From the NCBI RefSeq assembly GCF_056712565.1, contig NZ_CM160072.1: a stretch of 64,000 bases of DNA; one strand, written 5' to 3'. This document shows, one piece after another, positions 27,974 through 61,738 of this stretch (positions are counted from its first letter, which is position 1; each line of letters opens with the position of its first letter). The position numbers and the translations under genes are program-made. The notes under the pieces were generated by a model. The model worked only from the letters and a program-made list of their open reading frames with translations, searched no databases and was not told where the DNA came from.

Positions 27974-27994
27974 CATTCATAGTGCAGGGTCAAA

Positions 27995-28009
27995 TCATTC
28001 CCACTCAAT
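27995..28009 (-). other. Displaced guaA 3' end (codons IEWE-stop) = prophage attachment core at junction
   Basis: TCATTCCCACTCAAT reverse-translates to ...I-E-W-E-stop then diverges into phage DNA; 9-bp inverted repeat CACTCAATT/AATTGAGTG at 28002-28038. Confidence 0.55.
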
Positions 28010-30416: not shown

Positions 30417-30445
30417 CCCGCAAAATATTGCGGGCTTTTTTTTAA
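30417..30445 (+). terminator. Plus-strand rho-independent terminator abutting tailspike stop
   Basis: CCCGCAAAATATTGCGGG followed by CTTTTTTTTT. Confidence 0.4.
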
Positions 30446-33400
30446 CGTTCTTCCAGAGACTGAATCCGCTCTTTTATCTTATCCATTTCTCTGCGCTGCC
30501 ATGCTGCCTCGATATAGAATAAGAGATCAGGTCTGACCCCCCATCTAGATCCTGCTGGCGTTATTTCAACGCGCTCAATGATGTCTTCTATTACCATCAC
30601 TGGATTATCATCCTCATCAACAATGATGCTCCCGTCATTATCAGTCAGCGGCATTTCCCTTTGGCCAGTAATGACGTCATCATATACTGCGGGATAATCG
30701 TCATAGCAAAGAAAGGCATAGCGGCATGTTGTGCTTTCTTCTTCCATGAGTCCGTGAGAAATAAGAACATCACGAAGTTGCTGCGCGATTACACCATGAT
30801 GTATCCTCGCCCCTTCTTCCCCCTTTATAGCGACAGCGTTCAGCCATTTATAAGCGATATACCTGACGTCACCCCAGGCATCCAGCAATGCTTCGTCAGG
30901 AGAGACCGGCTCTGTCTTTAATGTTCCGTCACTGGTAACCACAGGATTGGAGCCAAGATAAACTGTCGAGAACCTGTTTCCCGGACCACCAAGAGCATTT
31001 ACATTATCAAGATAAGGTTTAACATCTCCGTTCTCAAAAAGATGTTCGAGTGCGTTATATACCGCGCGACGTGGAGTACTGCTTCCGGAACCATGCAACG
31101 TTATCATTGCACCATCTGCTGAAGACGTTGTTTCACCTCCGCTAACGATTAATCTCTGAGCGGTAACATCATCAGACGGTACTTTCTTCGCAATAATGGC
31201 GTAATTACCCTCAAGTTTGACTTCCGCGCGAACTTGTCCTGATGTACCTGCATGGACAGTCAGTGACTGGACGGCAACATCATCTGTGAAATCAACGGGT
31301 ACAGGAACCGTCCTCACGCCTGACGTCGACATAAAAGTAGGAAGCGTTCTGTTAGGAGTGGCTCCGTAGACAAAATCCCTTGAAACAAATTCTTCCTGTT
31401 TAATTTTCACCCTGAAACAATACAAATCAGCCGGGTGACCATCGTGAACATAAGGATATTTTCTGTTGTTATCCCCTATGCTCCATGGGTTTAGAAAGTC
31501 TTCCCCACCGAAAATGTAGTACAGCCAGTTGTCTTTGATACAAACTGAACCAACACCAACCGCAGAGTTAACTATTCCGCCCTGATAAATCTGATCAGTA
31601 ACATTAACCCACTCTACATTATCCAGACTCCACTCATTGACGTTAACTCTGGTCATAAATGTTCTTGGATAATTTCCTGCATAACGGTTATCAGGTTCTC
31701 CTCCTTCCCACTCACCAAATGCGCGCTCACTGCCAAAAATAATCAGCTCATCGCCAACTTTGGCAAAAGGAAGGTTTGAGTGATGAACATTATTTGGGAA
31801 GCGAAGAGAATTCCATGATGTACCTAAATCAGAGCTTCTGTGCAATGAACTACCGGGTTGAGTACTTAATGTCCCCCTGGTCGTCAGATACAGAATGCCA
31901 TCATAATATTTTACACATGGCTCAGATGCATTCGCCTCATATTCTGCAGGTATGCGTCTGCGAACAAAGCTACCAGGAGAACCGAAAGCATCAGAGAAAT
32001 AGAGTATCCCAAGCTCGCGTGGACCAATATCACCATTATGGTAGCCAACAGCAAAACTGTTATCGCTAATCGTCGCAAAACTGTGAATCTCAGTAACAGG
32101 AGTGCTTCCGTCAACAAAAGAAGGAATAGTTCCAAGACTGGTTTTTCTCCATGGTGACGAGTGAAATGATGTACCAAAACTCCAGTATCTACCCTCGTTA
32201 TTCTGATCCACATCCTGAGTATTTTGCGTCGTAACTGTAAAAGTATTTTTATCAATAACAGTAGTCACCGTCATATTCCCGGTAACACCTGTAACACCAG
32301 AGTTTGAGAAGTTGACAAAATCACCAGCAAATAATCCGTGATCAGTAATGCGAATATAAGCGACTTGCTGATTTGCTGCTTTCGTTATACCACCATAAAC
32401 GCGAAGGCTGCGACTCATTGGGCGATCCCACAACTCTGCAACCTGCAGTTTATTTCCTCTCACGGTCCGCGTCTCAATTACAGCAAAAAGGCGATTTCTG
32501 ACAACCCCCATACTCATGCAGTGATAGTTAACTGTGGGATAGTTTTCATGTAAATCTGTAAGCCATTCCGGCGTTGTCCAGGTCTTCCCGTCATCTCCTG
32601 AGCGAACCCATGCAACATGGAGGTTATTTACACCATGGCGGTCTCCAGCCATAAAAGGCGCATAGATGACATTGTCATATACAAACGTTTTATCCTGCGT
32701 CCAGGCGTTGTACCACGGTGTATCTGTAATTTTAAATAACTCTCCCTGGATAAAATCTTCAGAAGCATAAAAAAGAGGCTGGCCCGGTATTCTCTCAAAT
32801 AAAAAACGAGCATTTTTAAATCGACTGACATCCGGAAGAGTTGATACTTTAAAAGTAAGCCCTAATCCGTCAATTTTATAACCTGGAGATGAGGCTTCAA
32901 GGCACGCGCTTATTGCAGTGGAATCGTCATTTATACCATCACCAACAGCTCCAAAATCTTTGGGGCTAATAGCATCACGCATTTTATCCTGGAACGTTCG
33001 GTACACAGCCCCAGAACCATACTGAATAAACCAACCAAAACCACCAACAACCCCGGCGATTGCAGCATCGACATAATTACGCATTGAGCGATTATTTACA
33101 GCGTCCTGCTCAAATGATGGATCTGCAAGGTTAGAAATTTTGTTTTGCTTTGCATCGTAATATTTTGCAAGCAAAGATGGTTTCATCAATGCACGTCTGA
33201 ACCACCCAAAACATTGCTGGATCAGCATCGTCAGGTAGTCAAAGGCATCTTCATGCACTTCGGGGAAAAATTTTCCCTGATTGCGAAGGTCTGTCTCCTG
33301 CACTACATCAAGCACACGATCTATCGTAATTCGCCATCCAGTAGCAAGCGGAGACGGAAGAACCACAGAACCGCCACTATAAGTGCCCGCCCCAGTTACC

Positions 33401-33561
33401 GTATAACCGGTATCCAGGACCAATTCTGTTACGTTCCCGTTCAGGTCAGACACCTGAACAACCAGGTCTGATTTTCTGAAAATTCGAAAAGTATACGGAA
33501 ACGATGTCGTAACGCCGTTACCGGTGTATTCGTTGTGGTCAACTTCGGTTGAGACCGTCAT
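30442..33561 (-). CDS. Tailspike protein with Asp-box (BNR) beta-propeller-type central domain
   Basis: 1039 aa; conserved phage tail-fibre N-terminal domain; two SxDxGxTW motifs (SGDDGKTW, SSDLGTSW); RBS GGAG. Confidence 0.8.
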   Translation of the reverse strand: MTVSTEVDHNEYTGNGVTTSFPYTFRIFRKSDLVVQVSDLNGNVTELVLDTGYTVTGAGTYSGGSVVLPSPLATGWRITIDRVLDVVQETDLRNQGKFFPEVHEDAFDYLTMLIQQCFGWFRRALMKPSLLAKYYDAKQNKISNLADPSFEQDAVNNRSMRNYVDAAIAGVVGGFGWFIQYGSGAVYRTFQDKMRDAISPKDFGAVGDGINDDSTAISACLEASSPGYKIDGLGLTFKVSTLPDVSRFKNARFLFERIPGQPLFYASEDFIQGELFKITDTPWYNAWTQDKTFVYDNVIYAPFMAGDRHGVNNLHVAWVRSGDDGKTWTTPEWLTDLHENYPTVNYHCMSMGVVRNRLFAVIETRTVRGNKLQVAELWDRPMSRSLRVYGGITKAANQQVAYIRITDHGLFAGDFVNFSNSGVTGVTGNMTVTTVIDKNTFTVTTQNTQDVDQNNEGRYWSFGTSFHSSPWRKTSLGTIPSFVDGSTPVTEIHSFATISDNSFAVGYHNGDIGPRELGILYFSDAFGSPGSFVRRRIPAEYEANASEPCVKYYDGILYLTTRGTLSTQPGSSLHRSSDLGTSWNSLRFPNNVHHSNLPFAKVGDELIIFGSERAFGEWEGGEPDNRYAGNYPRTFMTRVNVNEWSLDNVEWVNVTDQIYQGGIVNSAVGVGSVCIKDNWLYYIFGGEDFLNPWSIGDNNRKYPYVHDGHPADLYCFRVKIKQEEFVSRDFVYGATPNRTLPTFMSTSGVRTVPVPVDFTDDVAVQSLTVHAGTSGQVRAEVKLEGNYAIIAKKVPSDDVTAQRLIVSGGETTSSADGAMITLHGSGSSTPRRAVYNALEHLFENGDVKPYLDNVNALGGPGNRFSTVYLGSNPVVTSDGTLKTEPVSPDEALLDAWGDVRYIAYKWLNAVAIKGEEGARIHHGVIAQQLRDVLISHGLMEEESTTCRYAFLCYDDYPAVYDDVITGQREMPLTDNDGSIIVDEDDNPVMVIEDIIERVEITPAGSRWGVRPDLLFYIEAAWQRREMDKIKERIQSLEER

Positions 33562-33665
33562 GTTAAATCTCCAGATAGTCGCAGCACCCGTTGCGCCGCA
33601 TATCTGGTTATTCTATTACCTGAAAAACCACATATGGATAAAAGGACTATAAATACCAATAGATA

Positions 33666-33680
33666 TTACCTTTCGGGTAA
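33666..33680. promoter_or_regulatory. Operator-like palindrome TTACC-N5-GGTAA
   Basis: TTACCTTTCGGGTAA; member of a family of 10 perfect sites in the prophage. Confidence 0.45.
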
Positions 33681-33717
33681 TTTGCAAAACGTGCTGGATA
33701 GCAAACAAATTATTTGT

Positions 33718-33737
33718 TACTGTATAAACATACAGTT
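33718..33737. promoter_or_regulatory. LexA (SOS) box
   Basis: TACTGTATAAACATACAGTT = CTGT-N8-ACAG with TA-rich spacer, 20 bp upstream of ATG 33757. Confidence 0.6.
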
Positions 33738-33756
33738 ATTGCATGGAGAAGATAAG

Positions 33757-34014
33757 ATGCAGCAGTATCACTATCCACTGGAAGACGGATTTACCGAAAG
33801 GATTCACACGCCGGGAGGCGTCAGATCACTGGTGGAGGGATCGCTCTTGATGAAATTACTCCGGGATCTCGATAAGGATGGATTTAATGTCGATGGCCCA
33901 CTTGCCGAACTGACTGCACTGATTAACTACGTCACCAGCTCACAGATGTCTATGCGGGATCTGCAAACACATCTCGACTATTGTGCCGAACAATTACGAA
34001 AACAAACCAGATAA
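33757..34014 (+). CDS. Small antirepressor-like protein (85 aa), paralog of the Ant C-terminal domain
   Basis: MQQYHYPLEDGF...; aligns with C-terminus of the BRO-N protein; RBS GGAGAAG; track start 33634 is an extension. Confidence 0.55.
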   Translation: MQQYHYPLEDGFTERIHTPGGVRSLVEGSLLMKLLRDLDKDGFNVDGPLAELTALINYVTSSQMSMRDLQTHLDYCAEQLRKQTR

Positions 34015-34017
34015 GGT

Positions 34018-34046
34018 TTGCAATTACCAAATGGAGTGCTTATATT
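34018..34046 (+). promoter_or_regulatory. Sigma70-like promoter for antirepressor gene
   Basis: TTGCAA, 17-bp spacer, TATATT; abuts operator 34046-34060. Confidence 0.45.
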
Positions 34047-34060
34047 TACCTTTGCGGTAA
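34046..34060. promoter_or_regulatory. Operator-like palindrome TTACC-N5-GGTAA
   Basis: TTACCTTTGCGGTAA overlapping -10/+1 of the antirepressor promoter. Confidence 0.45.
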
Positions 34061-34326
34061 ATTTACATCGCACTCCTCTTGTGCCATAGTAATCGGGCAC
34101 TGGCAAAATCCAGTGCCGGGATTGGCGTCCCGAGTTACTACAGAGGCACATATGCCGCATAAGCGGTTTTTTTATGTGTAAAGCGCACCTATTCTATGGT
34201 GGGCTGTGTGGGGGCACCGAAAGGTGCGCCGGGTCCTTTGTAGCCGGTTACGCCAACCCTGCACAGTTCACCACCAACCGATTGGCGTCGGTAGTGGTGA
34301 TTAACCTAACTACAAAGGTGATCGCC

Positions 34327-35019
34327 ATGAATACCAAACCTTCCATCTTTTCCTTTGAGTCATCCTGCCAGATCCGTATGTTCATGATTGACGGAGAACC
34401 TTGGTTTGTCACCAAAGATGTGTGCAATGCTTTGAATATTGATGTTACACAAGCGAGAAAACTTGATAAAAAAGGCTGGAACAAAAAGGGGCTGTATTCA
34501 ATACAGACCCCTGGTGGAATACAAGAACTATCCATCGTTTCAGAATCAGGTCTCTACATCCTTATTCTGCGTTGCAAAGAGGCAATGACTGAGGGAACGA
34601 GAGCATTCAGATTTCTTGAATGGGTTACAGGCGAAGTACTTCCTCAGATCCGCCGCACCGGAAGCTACATTAAAAACTCGCTCCCGCAGGAAGAACGCAT
34701 AAAGATGGTTGCCGACCAGGTAGCCAACGCCACGGCGTCAGCAGTAATGCAGGCGATGAAGATAGAGAACAAAACCTACAGCGCCCCACTGAAGCCCGGC
34801 TACCGCAGCCTGATTCATTCGCCGTCTGGTGTTCTCGGCCTGACGGAGAACTCACTGCTGATGAATCTGCTGAACCAGTTACAGGAAGACGGGCACGACG
34901 TATCGGGCGCGGCGGCGGAGCTGACCACCATGTTCTGCTACATCGTCGGTGTGAGCAAGTGCCTGCGTGATATCCAGACGCACGCGGAGTACATCAACGA
35001 CAAGGCTGGGTTCTTCTGA
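34327..35019 (+). CDS. Antirepressor, BRO-N N-terminal domain plus Ant-type C-terminal domain
   Basis: GEPWFVTKDVCNALNI...GLYILILRCKEA...EWVTGEVLPQIRRTG BRO-N signature; ATG 34327 with RBS AAGGTG. Confidence 0.75.
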   Translation: MNTKPSIFSFESSCQIRMFMIDGEPWFVTKDVCNALNIDVTQARKLDKKGWNKKGLYSIQTPGGIQELSIVSESGLYILILRCKEAMTEGTRAFRFLEWVTGEVLPQIRRTGSYIKNSLPQEERIKMVADQVANATASAVMQAMKIENKTYSAPLKPGYRSLIHSPSGVLGLTENSLLMNLLNQLQEDGHDVSGAAAELTTMFCYIVGVSKCLRDIQTHAEYINDKAGFF

Positions 35020-35027
35020 CGGGCGGC

Positions 35028-35046
35028 GGCACATGGATGTGCCTTT
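35028..35046 (+). terminator. Candidate terminator after antirepressor gene
   Basis: GGCACAT-gg-ATGTGCC hairpin then TTT. Confidence 0.35.
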
Positions 35047-35085
35047 AAAATAATCATTGGCGATGTGATGTAGATTCGCGTAATA

Positions 35086-35100
35086 TTACCTTACGGGTAA
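35086..35100. promoter_or_regulatory. Operator-like palindrome TTACC-N5-GGTAA
   Basis: TTACCTTACGGGTAA, 60 bp upstream of ATG 35160. Confidence 0.45.
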
Positions 35101-35159
35101 GAAAGCGTTTTTAATCTTCCCTTCAAAACGCGTCCTGTAGCCAAACATGGGAGGACGAA

Positions 35160-35792
35160 ATGAAAACAAATACAACAAGAAAAGCGATGCCATACATTAT
35201 CCCAGAAGCAGATTTCGACAGAAAACTGAACATGTCTGAGAAGAACACTAGTCACACCGAAAGCTACTTAGCGAAAGGTGTGGTTGATTTCGTTCTTCCG
35301 GGATTCACAACACCTTATGGTTATCGCCTTGTAAAATCTTGTAATGGCGATCATTACAGAATGATTACTACCAGCGATACTCCAGAAACGGTGTATGCGG
35401 TTAAGTTAATCTTTCGGGAAGATATCGTCGAAGCTAAAAGAACATGTACGCAGATCATGGTATGGCGTACGCCTAATGTTATTCATGACCGTGCTGTTCA
35501 TGGTTTGCCTCAGATTTTTTTTCAGTTCTTCCTAGAGCAATATGCGATCGTTGTATCTGATGAGCAACAAACAATCGATGGGAGAAGATTCTGGGAAAGA
35601 ATGATTTCTTGGGCTATAAACACCCCGGGATATAATGTATACGTTTCAGATGGCTCTGAAGAAGATAGACCTCTTAGCTTCATGACATCATGGGATGATT
35701 TCTATAGCCAGTGGGCTGATTTCTGTTGGGGCAGTGATAAAGATGTGCATACCCACAGACTACTGGTTATAAGCAAAGATAAACTGCATTAA
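35160..35792 (+). CDS. Hypothetical cytoplasmic protein (210 aa), moron
   Basis: Own operator, RBS GGGAGGA and terminator; Trp-rich C-terminus; no family recognised. Confidence 0.55.
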   Translation: MKTNTTRKAMPYIIPEADFDRKLNMSEKNTSHTESYLAKGVVDFVLPGFTTPYGYRLVKSCNGDHYRMITTSDTPETVYAVKLIFREDIVEAKRTCTQIMVWRTPNVIHDRAVHGLPQIFFQFFLEQYAIVVSDEQQTIDGRRFWERMISWAINTPGYNVYVSDGSEEDRPLSFMTSWDDFYSQWADFCWGSDKDVHTHRLLVISKDKLH

Positions 35793-35818: not shown

Positions 35819-35890
35819 GTGGACGAAACAAAAGTCAGTGCTACACTCATTGACGCCACATTGAGGTGGCTTATAGATGGAAATTTCACA

Positions 35891-36052
35891 ATGAAAAAAA
35901 CATTTGCTGCACTGTTCGTTTTGTTGTCTCTGGTAGCTTCAACTCAGGCCTTTGCCGGTCGTTGTCAGCACGACAGCGATACTGCTGCTGACGGCTCCCG
36001 CTGCGGTGGGCGTTCTGCGGATTCCCGCCCGGGCGGCGGTGGCATTCGTTAA
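35891..36052 (+). CDS. Candidate small secreted peptide (53 aa)
   Basis: MKKTFAALFVLLSLVASTQAFA signal peptide, then 2-Cys Gly/Arg-rich 31-aa tail; weak RBS. Confidence 0.3.
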   Translation: MKKTFAALFVLLSLVASTQAFAGRCQHDSDTAADGSRCGGRSADSRPGGGGIR

Positions 36053-36088: not shown

Positions 36089-36649
36089 CTACATTGATAT
36101 ATGATTCATAAAGTAGCTTAAAGATTTACTTCCCAGAAAAGAAATTTCTTTTCCTGGATATGTCGCAATAATTGAGCATGACTTATCCCCGTTAGAGGTA
36201 ACAAATCCTGAATAACCTACTTGTTCTTTACCATTTTGTTGCTTGGCTAAAAAGTAGAGGTAGCTTATCTTTTTGCCCTCTGGGTAAAACTCTGCCAAAC
36301 CAGTATCGGTGATTGAATATTTTATTCTCCCGCCTTGAGTAACGTTTTCCATCTCAAGTTTAGCTATGTCTTTTCTGTTGTATTCAGCATTGATTTTCCT
36401 TTCGAAATCAATGTTGTTTTCAAATGAGTAGGAAGCAACAGTCTGAATAGATGGGAACACGTTTATCTGGATGCCCCCACAGTCGGCACAGGTATAAAGG
36501 TATGAATCAGATGGAATCCCCATAAAAGAAAACTGAGTTACCTTAAATTTATCGCTATCTCCAAAGTATTGAAGTTCGCATTTAACATTTTGCCCTGCAA
36601 AAGAAAATGCAGACATCAATATTGAAACAAAAAATATAATTGCCTTCAT
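36089..36649 (-). CDS. Secreted Cys-containing protein (186 aa), AT-rich moron at end of virion operon
   Basis: Signal peptide MKAIIFFVSILMSAFSFA; ATG 2 nt after stop of upstream gene. Confidence 0.55.
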   Translation of the reverse strand: MKAIIFFVSILMSAFSFAGQNVKCELQYFGDSDKFKVTQFSFMGIPSDSYLYTCADCGGIQINVFPSIQTVASYSFENNIDFERKINAEYNRKDIAKLEMENVTQGGRIKYSITDTGLAEFYPEGKKISYLYFLAKQQNGKEQVGYSGFVTSNGDKSCSIIATYPGKEISFLGSKSLSYFMNHISM

Positions 36650-52458: not shown

Positions 52459-52495
52459 TTGACATTTAACGCGTTAATTATTACCTTTCAGGTAA
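52459..52495. promoter_or_regulatory. TTGACA -35-like hexamer plus operator-like palindrome (52481-52495)
   Basis: TTGACA at 52459-52464; TTACCTTTCAGGTAA at 52481-52495. Confidence 0.4.
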
Positions 52496-52816: not shown

Positions 52817-52893
52817 GTGGCATTAGCTCAGTTGGACAGAGCAACCGCCTTCTAAGCGGTTGGTCGCAGGTTCGAATCCTGCATGCCACGCCA
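52817..52893 (+). tRNA. Phage-encoded tRNA-Arg, anticodon UCU
   Basis: Cloverleaf by hand: acceptor GTGGCAT/ATGCCAC, D-arm GCTC/GAGC, anticodon stem ACCGC/GCGGT, loop CTTCTAA, T-arm GCAGG-TTCGAAT-CCTGC, CCA end. Confidence 0.85.
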
Positions 52894-58556: not shown

Positions 58557-58571
58557 TTACCTCTAAGGTAA
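58557..58571. promoter_or_regulatory. Operator-like palindrome TTACC-N5-GGTAA
   Basis: TTACCTCTAAGGTAA immediately upstream of ATG 58553. Confidence 0.45.
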
Positions 58572-58618
58572 TTAAAAACCACATAAGACACGAAATCAAT
58601 AGATCTAAGAACATTTTG

Positions 58619-58633
58619 TTACCTATTGGGTAA
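58619..58633. promoter_or_regulatory. Operator-like palindrome TTACC-N5-GGTAA
   Basis: TTACCTATTGGGTAA in P / nuclease-like spacer. Confidence 0.45.
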
Positions 58634-60634: not shown

Positions 60635-60865
60635 TCATGAGTAGAAGAAGTATGCCAGTTCTGCTTTTGAGCGCAGCCATTGTCTTGTTTTACAGGCTTT
60701 AAAAAGCCCATTCATCAATACTTTACCTGGCATTTTTCGCTTACCTGTTAAGTGAGTCTGGATATAGTGACTCGTCGTTCCGGCTTCCTGTGCGAAGGCT
60801 TCACGCTCATCCGGAGTAAGTGCAAGCCAGTGCTTTTTGAAATCGAAATGTCCGTTATCGCTCAT
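60635..60865 (-). CDS. Cro-like HTH regulator (76 aa)
   Basis: Divergent from cI-like gene across the operator cluster; HTH LTPDEREAFAQEAGTTSHYIQ. Confidence 0.55.
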   Translation of the reverse strand: MSDNGHFDFKKHWLALTPDEREAFAQEAGTTSHYIQTHLTGKRKMPGKVLMNGLFKACKTRQWLRSKAELAYFFYS

Positions 60866-60901: not shown

Positions 60902-60964
60902 TCACCCATAAGGTAACAAAAATCAAGGATAGTTACCTATGAGGTGCATTTACCTGTTGGGTAA
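60902..60964. promoter_or_regulatory. OR-like tripartite operator region between cro-like and cI-like genes
   Basis: TCACCCATAAGGTAA (60902), TTACCTATGAGGTGC (60933), TTACCTGTTGGGTAA (60950). Confidence 0.5.
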
Positions 60965-61019: not shown

Positions 61020-61604
61020 ATGAAAAGTATCCAGGACGTCCGCAGGCAAAATCTCAACGACTTGATCGACCGTGAATTCAATGGTGTTCAGACGCGGATG
61101 GCAGAAAAACTTGGAACTCAGGCAAATCTGGTAAACCGCTGGGCTCTTGGCAAGAAGGTTATCGGCGACCAGGTTGCGCGAAAAATTGAAGCTGCCGCCA
61201 ATAAACCCCGTAACTGGCTTGATATCGATCGCTCGCTTTCTCAGGAAGGTTTTCAGCCTGTCGGCCCAAGCGACATTGGTCAGCTGGCGGCTCACAACCT
61301 GGAACGCTGGATGAGCGAAAGCCGCGACCTTTCAACACAGGGAAAACTTCACCGCGCATCCGGCGTCGCCCAGGTGACAATCAGCCGCCTGTTAAACAAT
61401 GAGGTCAGCGTTTCCATTTCCACCCTGGAGAATGTTGCATCCGCATTCGGGCGTCACGGCTATGAATTACTGATTCACCCGCACGACCCTGCGACTATCA
61501 ACTATGACCGCTCGCGCTACGCATTGTTACCCGAAACAGAGAAGGCAAAGATCGAAAGTTACATTGAATTTGTCATCAGCCAGAACGAAAAAAACAAACA
61601 ATAA
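61020..61604 (+). CDS. CI-like repressor, HTH type, no recognisable LexA-type autocleavage domain
   Basis: 194 aa, two HTH-like segments, no Ala-Gly/Ser-Lys S24 motifs; followed by terminator. Confidence 0.65.
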   Translation: MKSIQDVRRQNLNDLIDREFNGVQTRMAEKLGTQANLVNRWALGKKVIGDQVARKIEAAANKPRNWLDIDRSLSQEGFQPVGPSDIGQLAAHNLERWMSESRDLSTQGKLHRASGVAQVTISRLLNNEVSVSISTLENVASAFGRHGYELLIHPHDPATINYDRSRYALLPETEKAKIESYIEFVISQNEKNKQ

Positions 61605-61661: not shown

Positions 61662-61738
61662 TTACCTTATGGGTAATTTTTTTAACTCATATCTATTGAC
61701 ATCAAACCAGATACGCATAATCATTACCTCAACGGTAA
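61662..61738 (+). promoter_or_regulatory. pL-like promoter flanked by two operator palindromes
   Basis: TTACCTTATGGGTAA (61662-61676), TTGACA 61696-61701, ATAATC -10-like, TTACCTCAACGGTAA (61724-61738). Confidence 0.5.

Follow-up and report, generated by a model that had tools for sequence, protein, structure and literature searches.

How does a prophage whose repressor appears unable to cleave itself come to respond to DNA damage? The question is raised by a short locus in the window—the whole stretch of 64,000 nucleotides analysed here—where a gene for an 85-residue protein lies next to one for a larger BRO-N antirepressor. Judged by its sequence, the prophage in the window is a Uetakevirus of the epsilon15/phiV10/SPC32H type, hosted by E. 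coli. We consider it very probable that its repressor, Rep, is non-cleavable and that induction is left to two tailspike-adjacent antirepressors, a LexA-controlled Ant and an RNA-gated BRO-N protein. The first of these arms, in which LexA restrains Ant and Ant antagonizes Rep, is on orthology a further case of the published SPC32H system, since Ant and Rep are orthologous to the partners in a solved complex and the LexA box is homologous to the site mutated in SPC32N. The first-pass annotation had proposed that a repressor of this kind delegates induction to a LexA-controlled small antirepressor, and the match to the characterized SPC32H pair supports it. Kim and Ryu (2013) reportedly described the SPC32H Rep/Ant antirepression system, and Kim et al. 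(2016) are said to have determined the Rep/Ant structure (PDB 5D50/5D4Z).

The repressor itself provides the starting point for this argument.

61020-61604, plus strand: rep, encoding a 194-aa repressor, predicted target of Ant and ortholog of SPC32H Rep (PDB 5D50_A and Pfam matches)

Residues 1-190 of Rep match PDB 5D50_A ‘Repressor’ with an E value of 4e-42. Its Pfam content is limited to HTH domains, two in number (HTH_3/HTH_26), with no Peptidase_S24 match in the Pfam search, and its translation contains neither an Ala-Gly nor a Cys-Gly dipeptide; the earlier description of a cI-like repressor without S24 autocleavage motifs is therefore borne out. Because such a Rep would be unable to self-cleave, induction would fall to antirepressors. 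In SPC32H, an Ant tetramer takes hold of two Rep dimers and in doing so dismantles the tetrameric, DNA-binding form of Rep (PMC9638917). The N-terminal HTH region of Rep is conserved with SPC32H, and overall the two repressors are about half identical, as judged by eye from the alignment, compared with 85% for Ant, so that the Ant-Rep interface is assumed here. By orthology, Ant would release Rep from DNA, and SOS induction of this prophage would depend on ant.

Four features define the first arm.

33666-33680, no strand assigned: Rep-type operator TTACCTTTCGGGTAA, with exact palindromic half-sites, upstream of the ant promoter
33695-33723, plus strand: candidate ant promoter, predicted from a -35 of TGGATA (33695-33700), a 17-bp spacer and a -10 of TACTGT (33718-33723)
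33718-33737, no strand assigned: LexA (SOS) box TACTGTATAAACATACAGTT, a match to the 20-nt consensus that is conserved in relatives
33757-34014, plus strand: ant, encoding an antirepressor of 85 aa orthologous to SPC32H Ant (PDB, phage-record and phrog matches)

The 85-aa ORF is present as first described, and its product is readily identified: residues 2-84 match PDB 5D50_E ‘Anti-repressor protein’ (E 5e-45), the protein is 85.5% identical to the annotated SPC32H ant gene product (KC911856, there labelled anti-repressor), and it matches phrog_450. No Pfam or NCBIfam family was found for it, and nearly all E. coli records carry it as a ‘hypothetical protein’. A longer, 126-aa form of the ORF, beginning at ATG 33634, was rejected; its start lies upstream of the operator, it reads through the LexA box, and the crystallized protein has 86 aa.

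The LexA box before this ORF is likewise real and unique in the window. It is the sole match in the 64 kb to the 20-nt consensus at three mismatches or fewer, compared with 0 matches in 100 shuffles, and the two other CTGT-N8-ACAG matches in the window have spacers that are not AT-rich but GC-rich or mixed. Between the end of the box and ATG 33757 lie 19 nt, with GGAG at 33745-33748. The box is kept exactly in phiV10, ZX5, TL-2011b, SPC32H, epsilon15 and Tyrion; in two Klebsiella phages, BUCT711 and ST11-OXA245phi3.2, the left arm has changed from CTGT to ATGT. Its offset from the operator is fixed at 51-52 bp in seven other phage loci examined, from four host genera. A further comparison is between SPC32H and SPC32N, which differ by two bases in the compared locus; one of these, a C-to-A change, breaks the ACAG arm of the homologous LexA box. 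According to a review, LexA cleavage in SPC32H frees Ant synthesis (PMC7380047).

How LexA might act here is suggested by the candidate promoter, the -10 of which coincides with the left arm of the box. The same arrangement is annotated for p95 of phage 186, where the opening 6 nt of the LexA box serve as the -10. The promoter’s GCTGGATAG is invariant across 6 phages, and the consensus promoter scan called no ant promoter; TTGCAA at 33682-33687, which adjoins the operator, may serve as the -35 in place of TGGATA. In a lysogen, host LexA would occupy the SOS box overlapping the ant promoter. Upon DNA damage LexA would be lost and the 85-aa Ant produced, Rep would come off its TTACC-N5-GGTAA operators, and early lytic promoters would fire.

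These operators extend well beyond ant. The TTACC-N5-GGTAA motif occurs in 10 exact copies, all within the prophage, where 0 are expected. The copies sit at the rep/cro region, at early promoters and at the terminase and portal operons, with three in the antirepressor locus. Besides the site at ant, those most relevant here are as follows.

34046-34060, no strand assigned: second operator TTACCTTTGCGGTAA, adjoining the -35 of the isrK promoter, which reads toward the BRO-N gene
35086-35100, no strand assigned: third operator TTACCTTACGGGTAA, downstream of the BRO-N gene and before a cargo ORF (35160-35792)
60950-60964, no strand assigned: operator between rep and a divergent cro-like ORF (60635-60865, minus strand)
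61662-61738, no strand assigned: pair of operators (61662-61676 and 61724-61738) with a 62-bp spacing, one on either side of an early promoter (TTGACA/CATAAT)

Another 62-bp pair lies at 58557/58619, and epsilon15 has two equally spaced pairs. The epsilon15 RefSeq record marks equivalent operators as repressor sites, and in it the counterpart of 33666-33680 is a protein_bind feature, ‘repressor’. The site at 33666-33680 is kept in 6 phages while its N5 spacer drifts, and the half-sites at 34046-34060 are kept with varying spacers in phiV10, Tyrion, ZX5, TL-2011b and a Klebsiella prophage. The locus would thus come under Rep as well as LexA, and such double control is plausible. The earlier claim that both antirepressor genes carry the operator stands for their two promoters; the third copy belongs instead to the downstream cargo ORF, and in ZX5 and TL-2011b an operator likewise follows the BRO-N gene. 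Searches of the cargo ORFs with PADLOC and NCBIfam gave no match. At ant, the operator does not cover the core promoter but precedes the candidate -35, so repression by Rep is not obvious there; the site might serve in DNA looping or in transcriptional activation instead. A GGAGTGC...GCACTCC hairpin around the second operator was dropped, being absent from Tyrion.

The second arm centres on a fusion protein and the RNA leader of its gene.

34062-34090, plus strand: isrK promoter (TTTACA, 17-bp spacer, CATAGT, with TG upstream; promoter scan)
34097-34173, plus strand: IsrK sRNA, the a1/b1 element (Rfam RF01394, 74.2 bits; gathering score 50)
34192-34278, plus strand: C4-type antisense RNA (Rfam RF01695, full model, 79.5 bits; gathering score 45)
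34281-34321, plus strand: putative C4 targets a2 ATTGGCGTC (34281-34289) and b2 CTACAAAGG (34310-34318), from complementarity read in the sequence
34327-35019, plus strand: second antirepressor, 230 aa, with a BRO-N domain and an Ant-like C-terminal domain (Pfam and PDB matches)

The 230-aa BRO-N antirepressor gene is indeed adjacent to ant, its product carrying Pfam Bro-N (PF02498) at aa 16-106 with an E value of 4e-13. The protein matches phrog_130 ‘anti-repressor Ant’ (E 3.5e-51), and P22_AR_N only weakly (E 0.009). Its C-terminal domain (aa 149-225, nt 34771-35001) matches 5D50_E at E 9e-14, the same PDB chain as small Ant, and an alignment of small Ant residues 2-75 with BRO-N protein residues 149-222 shows 45% identity (E 1e-16), confirming the paralogy noted at first pass. 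Over its last 130 aa the protein is identical to ZX5 ORF4, and its N-terminal half differs from that of the ZX5/phiV10/TL-2011b relatives. Overexpression of ZX5 ORF4 brought ZX5 lysogens down about 1000-fold (PMC9782041). Phages of E. coli, Enterobacter and Klebsiella keep the dual layout of small ant and BRO-N gene, which SPC32H and epsilon15 lack; in sequenced phages the fused Ant-like copy occurs only alongside small Ant. In phiV10 it is frameshift-truncated within the Ant-like domain, and the second arm must therefore be dispensable for a viable phage. The ORF list of the locus revealed no further small regulator.

The BRO-N gene is preceded by 280 bp that had been passed over as plain spacer, and that view has to be abandoned: Rfam matches identify them as encoding IsrK and a C4 antisense RNA. 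The isrK promoter is predicted to start transcription near 34097, just where the Rfam isrK match begins. Within IsrK, a1 lies at 34121-34129 and b1 at 34138-34146, followed by an intrinsic terminator at 34154-34173 (terminator scan); in the locus of Stx phage P27, the corresponding stretch also scores as RF03163 c4-a1b1. The two C4 loops, b' CCUUUGUAG (34235-34243) and a' ACGCCAAC (34250-34257), are both open in the predicted fold and are complementary to a1/b1 of IsrK upstream and to a2/b2 downstream, where b2 overlaps the Shine-Dalgarno of the BRO-N gene. Three-way compensatory changes are found for the a element in Tyrion, and for the b element in phiV10/ZX5/TL-2011b, Stx P27 and the Klebsiella prophage. 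These changes span four specificity types, and the cognate C4 duplexes were the most stable.

Most probably, then, IsrK and C4 gate translation of the BRO-N antirepressor. As read from these elements, the second promoter, with its adjoining Rep operator, would transcribe IsrK, then C4, then the BRO-N message. Processed C4 would use its loops a' and b' to bind a2 and b2 of the same message, and because b2 covers the Shine-Dalgarno, translation of the antirepressor would be blocked, as in P1 immI. IsrK, which holds decoy copies (a1 and b1), could tip the balance toward translation, as Gifsy-1 IsrK does. Should Rep be stripped from the operator by the isrK promoter, transcription would increase and the second antirepressor would reinforce commitment, a positive feedback that we infer from the layout. 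No coupling ORF of the icd or orf45 kind is conserved before the BRO-N gene: leader ORFs vary in start, frame and length among the relatives, and Tyrion has none. An in-frame 281-aa ORF from 34174 is probably incidental for the same reason.

Comparison with known systems places each part of the locus. SPC32H shares orthologous Ant and Rep, a Rep without S24, an operator-LexA box offset of 52 bp, and an ant gene divergent from the tailspike and adjoining a virion structural gene. SPC32H and epsilon15 differ in having small ant only, followed directly by the structural-side gene, with no isrK, C4 or BRO-N gene; a further difference from SPC32H is that the host here is E. coli, the tailspike region being annotated as endosialidase in two related RefSeq prophages. 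The locus had been placed between ejection genes and tailspike. It does adjoin the tailspike (30442-33561, minus strand), and on the other flank is an ORF of 850 aa that, judged by position, corresponds to the epsilon15 virion structural gene gp17. The ‘Tum/Gifsy-type circuit’ of the first-pass annotation holds as a functional resemblance: 186 Tum and Gifsy/Fels-2 likewise pair a non-cleavable repressor with an antirepressor gene that a LexA box precedes, and the phage 186 box TACTGTATGTTTATACAGTA is identical to that of epsilon15. Relatedness to Tum does not hold, as Ant and Tum have no sequence similarity and the Tum record is annotated DinI-like; a BLASTP score of 18 bits (E 0.02, a single comparison) was rejected as homology.

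For the second arm, the closest parallels are P1 and Gifsy-1. In P1/P7 immI (c4, icd, ant1/2), as here, a C4-family RNA lies in the antirepressor mRNA leader, its loops pairing with a1/b1 and a2/b2, with b2 at a ribosome-binding site. The site at the P1 immI operon promoter is a C1 operator, and a site for the main repressor at the operon promoter is predicted here too. P1 differs in using icd as a coupling ORF; here none is conserved and b2 lies on the antirepressor’s own Shine-Dalgarno. Moreover, a1/b1 is here a separate, terminated sRNA, the antirepressor combines BRO-N with an Ant-like domain, and the main repressor is unrelated to C1. The role of C4, Icd and Ant in P1 has been described (PMC8201110). 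The Gifsy-1 isrK-orf45-anrP region is similar in having IsrK with its own terminator, then a C4-like stable RNA (STnc1160) and an antirepressor gene, and there the read-through mRNA is translationally silent until IsrK activates it in trans (Hershko-Shalev et al. 2016; PMC4825925). In Gifsy-1, orf45 and isrJ flank the antirepressor gene, whereas neither has a counterpart here: isrJ had no match in the window and was found in Salmonella phage SW-37. Unlike in Gifsy-1, the promoter here carries a predicted phage-repressor operator, and the predicted target is Rep rather than an AntQ antiterminator cascade. ZX5, phiV10 and TL-2011b carry the module at 92-97% DNA identity, with a C4 b-loop unlike that of the window, which is of the Tyrion type; in their records and papers the small gene is hypothetical, and LexA, IsrK and C4 are not mentioned.

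Could the parts be read otherwise? That the small ORF arose by partial duplication of the BRO-N 3' end and is now decaying, with a fortuitous LexA-like palindrome before it, might be suspected from its shortness, its lack of a Pfam family and its ‘hypothetical protein’ label, but the comparative data already refute this and leave it virtually no credence. The small ORF is the conserved member of the pair, being present in 35 of 35 phage records when the fused copy is missing from many, and it is a close match (85.5%) to a crystallized, genetically characterized protein; the palindrome, for its part, keeps its spacing from genus to genus, and SPC32N is set apart from SPC32H by a disrupted copy. 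We also regard as improbable that the TTACC-N5-GGTAA sites near the antirepressor genes serve another factor, such as a Cro-like protein or a late regulator, or are short hairpins, leaving only LexA and C4 to control the locus. Such a reading would account for sites that lie upstream of promoters rather than over them, and for copies before the late terminase and portal operons, an unusual place for a lysogeny repressor. It fits poorly with the clustering of the motif at rep/cro and the 62-bp pairs flanking early promoters here and in epsilon15, or with the conserved N-terminal HTH region of Rep and the assignment of the sites to the repressor by the epsilon15 annotators. Furthermore, half-sites that persist while spacers drift point to a dimeric protein site.

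More deserving of attention, if still unlikely, is that the fused protein is an anti-immunity or crosstalk weapon, aimed on infection or after induction at the diverged Rep of related resident prophages, with small Ant alone handling self-induction. Heterologous repressors are known targets of the Ant proteins of P22 and P1. With only 45% identity between the two Ant domains, that of the BRO-N protein might favour a different type of Rep; phiV10 is a viable phage although its copy is truncated, and C4 b-loops fall into several specificity types, as expected of an immunity determinant. Rep types do diverge strongly within the genus, that of the ZX5 type being 42% identical to epsilon15 Rep (PMC9782041), and crosstalk through prophage antirepressors is documented (PMC7380047). 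Set against this, the BRO-N promoter bears the phage’s own operator, and overexpression of the near-identical ORF4 lowered lysogeny of ZX5 itself (PMC9782041), so the protein acts on its cognate system, at least when abundant.

Within the preferred explanation, of two antirepressor arms acting on a non-cleavable Rep, a more tentative extension, to which we give somewhat less than an even chance, is that the locus forms a two-input switch. Paralogous Ant domains would converge on one Rep in response to different signals, DNA damage through LexA and the IsrK/C4 gate, which may sense transcription rate or physiology; Rep operators would make both arms self-reinforcing, and the C4 loop types, which number at least four, would constitute a second, RNA-based immunity specificity. 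Such a layout was not described in the literature searched, and the SPC32H papers of Kim and Ryu (2013) and Kim et al. (2016) may cover part of it.

No new mechanism emerges, as every component and its logic has already been published. What changes is the annotation: the true SOS-responsive inducer of phiV10/ZX5-type E. coli prophages would be the gene mostly labelled ‘hypothetical protein’, and the one experimental paper on a phage of this type tested only the BRO-N protein (PMC9782041). The locus also offers an example of how domain swapping may retarget an antirepressor, in that a widespread mobile cassette—isrK, c4 and a BRO-N antirepressor—appears here to have gained the repressor-binding domain of the resident phage. 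Among 5426 complete E. coli genomes, about 143 contain 80% or more of the module.

The prophage carries both members of a crystallised repressor–antirepressor complex, since each partner in PDB entry 5D50, from Salmonella phage SPC32H, is matched here. The 85-aa protein encoded by ant (small Ant) aligns over its whole length with chain 5D50_E, 'Anti-repressor protein' (E 5e-45), and is 85.5% identical to the product of the SPC32H gene annotated ant; the 194-aa repressor, Rep, aligns over residues 1-190 with chain 5D50_A, 'Repressor' (E 4e-42). By sequence, the circuit is a member of the SPC32H Rep/Ant family. In PMC9638917, DNA-bound SPC32H Rep is described as a tetramer, which tetrameric Ant splits by gripping two Rep dimers; PMC7380047, citing Kim and Ryu 2013, attributes Ant synthesis to LexA cleavage. 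These matches argue for the proposal of the first-pass annotation that induction proceeds via a LexA-controlled small antirepressor. Its premise of a repressor lacking S24 autocleavage motifs also holds: Pfam finds HTH domains only in Rep, with no Peptidase_S24, and the sequence contains no Ala-Gly or Cys-Gly dipeptide. The suggested likeness to a Tum-type circuit stands for function but not for sequence, as small Ant has no similarity to Tum of phage 186, which is a functional analog only.

The locus (33560-35160) lies within the prophage, whose closest sequenced relatives are the E. coli Uetakeviruses EC.W1-9, ZX5, TL-2011b and phiV10, with 92-97% identity across the antirepressor module.

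Features of the antirepressor circuit
33718-33737, LexA box
33757-34014, + strand, ant (85 aa)
34062-34090, isrK promoter TTTACA-17-CATAGT, predicted to start at base 1 of the isrK match; the second operator abuts it
34097-34173, isrK (Rfam 74 bits, gathering score 50)
34154-34173, IsrK intrinsic terminator
34192-34278, C4 antisense RNA (Rfam 79.5 bits, gathering score 45)
34327-35019, + strand, BRO-N gene (230 aa)
61020-61604, + strand, rep (194 aa)

As first noticed, a near-consensus LexA box precedes ant. This element, TACTGTATAAACATACAGTT, is the only one in the 64 kb (0 of 100 shuffles) and ends 19 nt before the ant ATG, with GGAG ahead of the ORF. When the sequences ahead of ant in the window, phiV10, SPC32H, epsilon15, Tyrion and one Klebsiella phage are aligned, the box proves conserved, and the distance between it and a copy of the operator is fixed at 51-52 bp. 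ZX5 and a second Klebsiella prophage have the same spacing, and the box is kept in TL-2011b and phiV10. Over the 5.2-kb stretch compared, only two bases distinguish SPC32H from SPC32N, a clear-plaque sibling, and one of these differences turns ATACAGT in the right arm of the homologous box into ATAAAGT; this is reportedly the mutation that Kim and Ryu described in 2013 as making Ant constitutive. In SPC32H, the homologous box is functional. A consensus promoter scan at ant found nothing. By analogy with p95 of phage 186, where the annotated -10 consists of the LexA box's first six bases, a candidate ant promoter would comprise TGGATA (33695-33700), a 17-bp spacer and TACTGT (33718-33723).

A putative second layer of control is the operator TTACC-N5-GGTAA, correctly recognised at the outset. 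Ten exact copies occur, with none expected, and all are within the prophage.

Operator copies
60950, between rep and a divergent cro-like ORF
61662/61724 (61662-61738), pair exactly 62 bp apart, flanking an early promoter
58557/58619 (58557-58633), pair exactly 62 bp apart, flanking an early promoter
55640, before the terminase operon
52481, before the portal operon
33666-33680, before ant
34046-34060, before isrK
35086-35100, before a cargo ORF

Eleven exact copies are present at equivalent places in epsilon15, including two 62-bp pairs, a spacing of about six helical turns; the epsilon15 RefSeq record marks them as repressor-binding sites, among them the copy ahead of gp19, which is the homolog of ant. 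Between phages the half-sites are constant and the five central bases drift, the sequence signature of a site for a dimeric protein. Identification of the motif copies as putative Rep sites is well supported, and the 62-bp pairs fit one Rep tetramer bridging two palindromes. At ant and isrK, the operator does not cover the core promoter but lies immediately upstream of the -35.

Two RNAs overlooked in the first-pass annotation, isrK and C4, occupy the 312 bp between ant and the BRO-N gene. Loop CCUUUGUAG of C4 (34235-34243) can pair with CUACAAAGG (34310-34318), a site overlapping the BRO-N Shine-Dalgarno, and, with one mismatch, with CUACAGAGG in IsrK (34138-34146); likewise, ACGCCAA in C4 (34250-34256) is complementary to UUGGCGU both in IsrK (34122-34128) and after C4 (34282-34288). 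Three-way compensatory change across phages accompanies these pairings: Tyrion has altered all three 'a' elements jointly (AGACC with GGUCU), phiV10, ZX5 and TL-2011b have lost one base in all three 'b' elements, and Stx phage P27 and a Klebsiella prophage each have their own matching triplet. When duplexes were calculated all against all, each row had the cognate loop/RBS pair as its most stable, and loop/IsrK pairs were most stable within the same specificity type. Pairing of C4 with the BRO-N ribosome-binding site and with IsrK is strongly supported by this covariation. IsrK is an a1b1 element; at one locus the isrK stretch also matches Rfam c4-a1b1.

The same C4/a1b1/a2b2 logic operates in P1 immI (PMC8201110; family definition in PMC2864571). 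In Gifsy-1, the read-through form of IsrK mRNA is translationally silent, and translation of the downstream antirepressor is activated in trans by short IsrK (PMC4825925). The second arm of the present circuit is the P1 c4 and Gifsy-1 IsrK paradigms combined. Whereas P1 and Gifsy-1 have a leader ORF, none is conserved before the BRO-N gene among the relatives compared, so C4 probably acts by directly blocking the ribosome-binding site of the antirepressor gene itself. A 281-aa ORF (34174-35019, + strand), whose ATG directly follows the IsrK terminator and which runs through C4 into BRO-N, is probably incidental, its frame not being conserved in relatives. In the ZX5 record, C4 is instead covered by a short ORF annotated 'ash family protein'.

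The BRO-N protein combines a Pfam Bro-N domain with an Ant-like C-terminal domain that matches 5D50_E (E 9e-14). Its residues 149-222 are 45% identical to small Ant (E 1e-16), bearing out the paralogy noted originally. Among 50,697 phage records, this C-terminal domain (34 records) is limited to those that also carry small Ant (35 records), and the isrK-C4-BRO-N cassette occurs with other C-termini in >100 Stx-phage records; this is most simply explained by a mobile cassette having gained a duplicate of the resident Ant domain. The full layout (operator, LexA box, ant, operator, isrK, C4, BRO-N::Ant) also occurs in Enterobacter phage Tyrion and a Klebsiella prophage, and is absent from SPC32H, epsilon15 and BUCT711. 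ZX5 ORF4 is identical to the BRO-N protein over the C-terminal 130 aa and differs in the Bro-N domain (34327-34640), and the C4 b-loop (34235-34243) is of the Tyrion rather than the ZX5/phiV10 type, a pattern that indicates mosaic exchange within the cassette. Overexpression of ORF4 reduced ZX5 lysogens from ~1e9 to 1e6 (PMC9782041), a paper in which the small gene, LexA and the RNAs go unmentioned. The BRO-N arm is dispensable, since the phiV10 copy (L001, 3268-3947; annotated as p23 + p22) is truncated by a frameshift within the Ant-like domain.

In essence, LexA would repress ant until SOS releases Ant, which, by orthology to SPC32H, would disassemble the Rep tetramer. C4 would base-pair with the BRO-N ribosome-binding site and IsrK. 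The BRO-N protein may act on Rep of the same prophage, on foreign Reps or on both. Rep bound beside the ant and isrK promoters may limit their activity, such that its inactivation would generate positive feedback. A scan found no plus-strand terminator between ant and isrK, and SOS-driven transcription may therefore extend into the RNA leader. All the sequence statements made initially about the locus proved correct, as did the SOS-antirepressor finding, although its central claim was already published in 2013 and 2016. The additions here are modest: recognition of a 'hypothetical' gene in E. coli phages as an SOS-controlled inducer, an RNA gate on a second antirepressor gene, and a pair of paralogous Ant domains whose association is conserved.

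Most of the module is present in ~143 of 5426 complete E. coli genomes. Gene order in the prophage is that of epsilon15; its right end lies outside the window, past its end, and its left end carries ATTGAGTGGGAATGATT, the attP core given for ZX5, phiV10 and epsilon15 (PMC9782041).

Prophage landmarks and cargo
27993-28009, att core ATTGAGTGGGAATGATT at the left prophage end, adjoining lysis genes
30442-33561, - strand, tailspike gene flanking the locus on one side
Other flank, 850-aa ORF, placed like the epsilon15 gp17 virion structural gene
35160-35792, + strand, cargo ORF, 210 aa (phrog_1349), operator in front
35819-36052, + strand, small cargo ORF, signal-peptide-like N-terminus
36089-36649, - strand, cargo ORF, 186 aa (phrog_11983), signal-peptide-like N-terminus
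52817-52893, + strand, tRNA-Arg (anticodon TCT) within the prophage, flanked by the portal and terminase operons, near the operator at 52481-52495

In two related RefSeq prophages (module identity ~96-97%), features annotated 'endosialidase catalytic beta-propeller domain-containing protein' overlap the 1039-aa tailspike region, which suggests a K1-capsule-specific Uetakevirus prophage; different tailspikes occupy this place in other relatives. A block lying between the start of the tailspike gene and the operator at ant, ATTCTATTACC..AAACC..ATATG.AT (33610-33640), is invariant in the six phages, from four host genera, of the alignment upstream of ant; it includes one operator half-site and could act as a tailspike promoter or a regulatory site. 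The three cargo ORFs separate the antirepressor module from the structural genes. The 210-aa and 186-aa proteins had no match in NCBIfam or PADLOC, and cargo at this place varies among relatives, for example the YafO toxin in TL-2011b.
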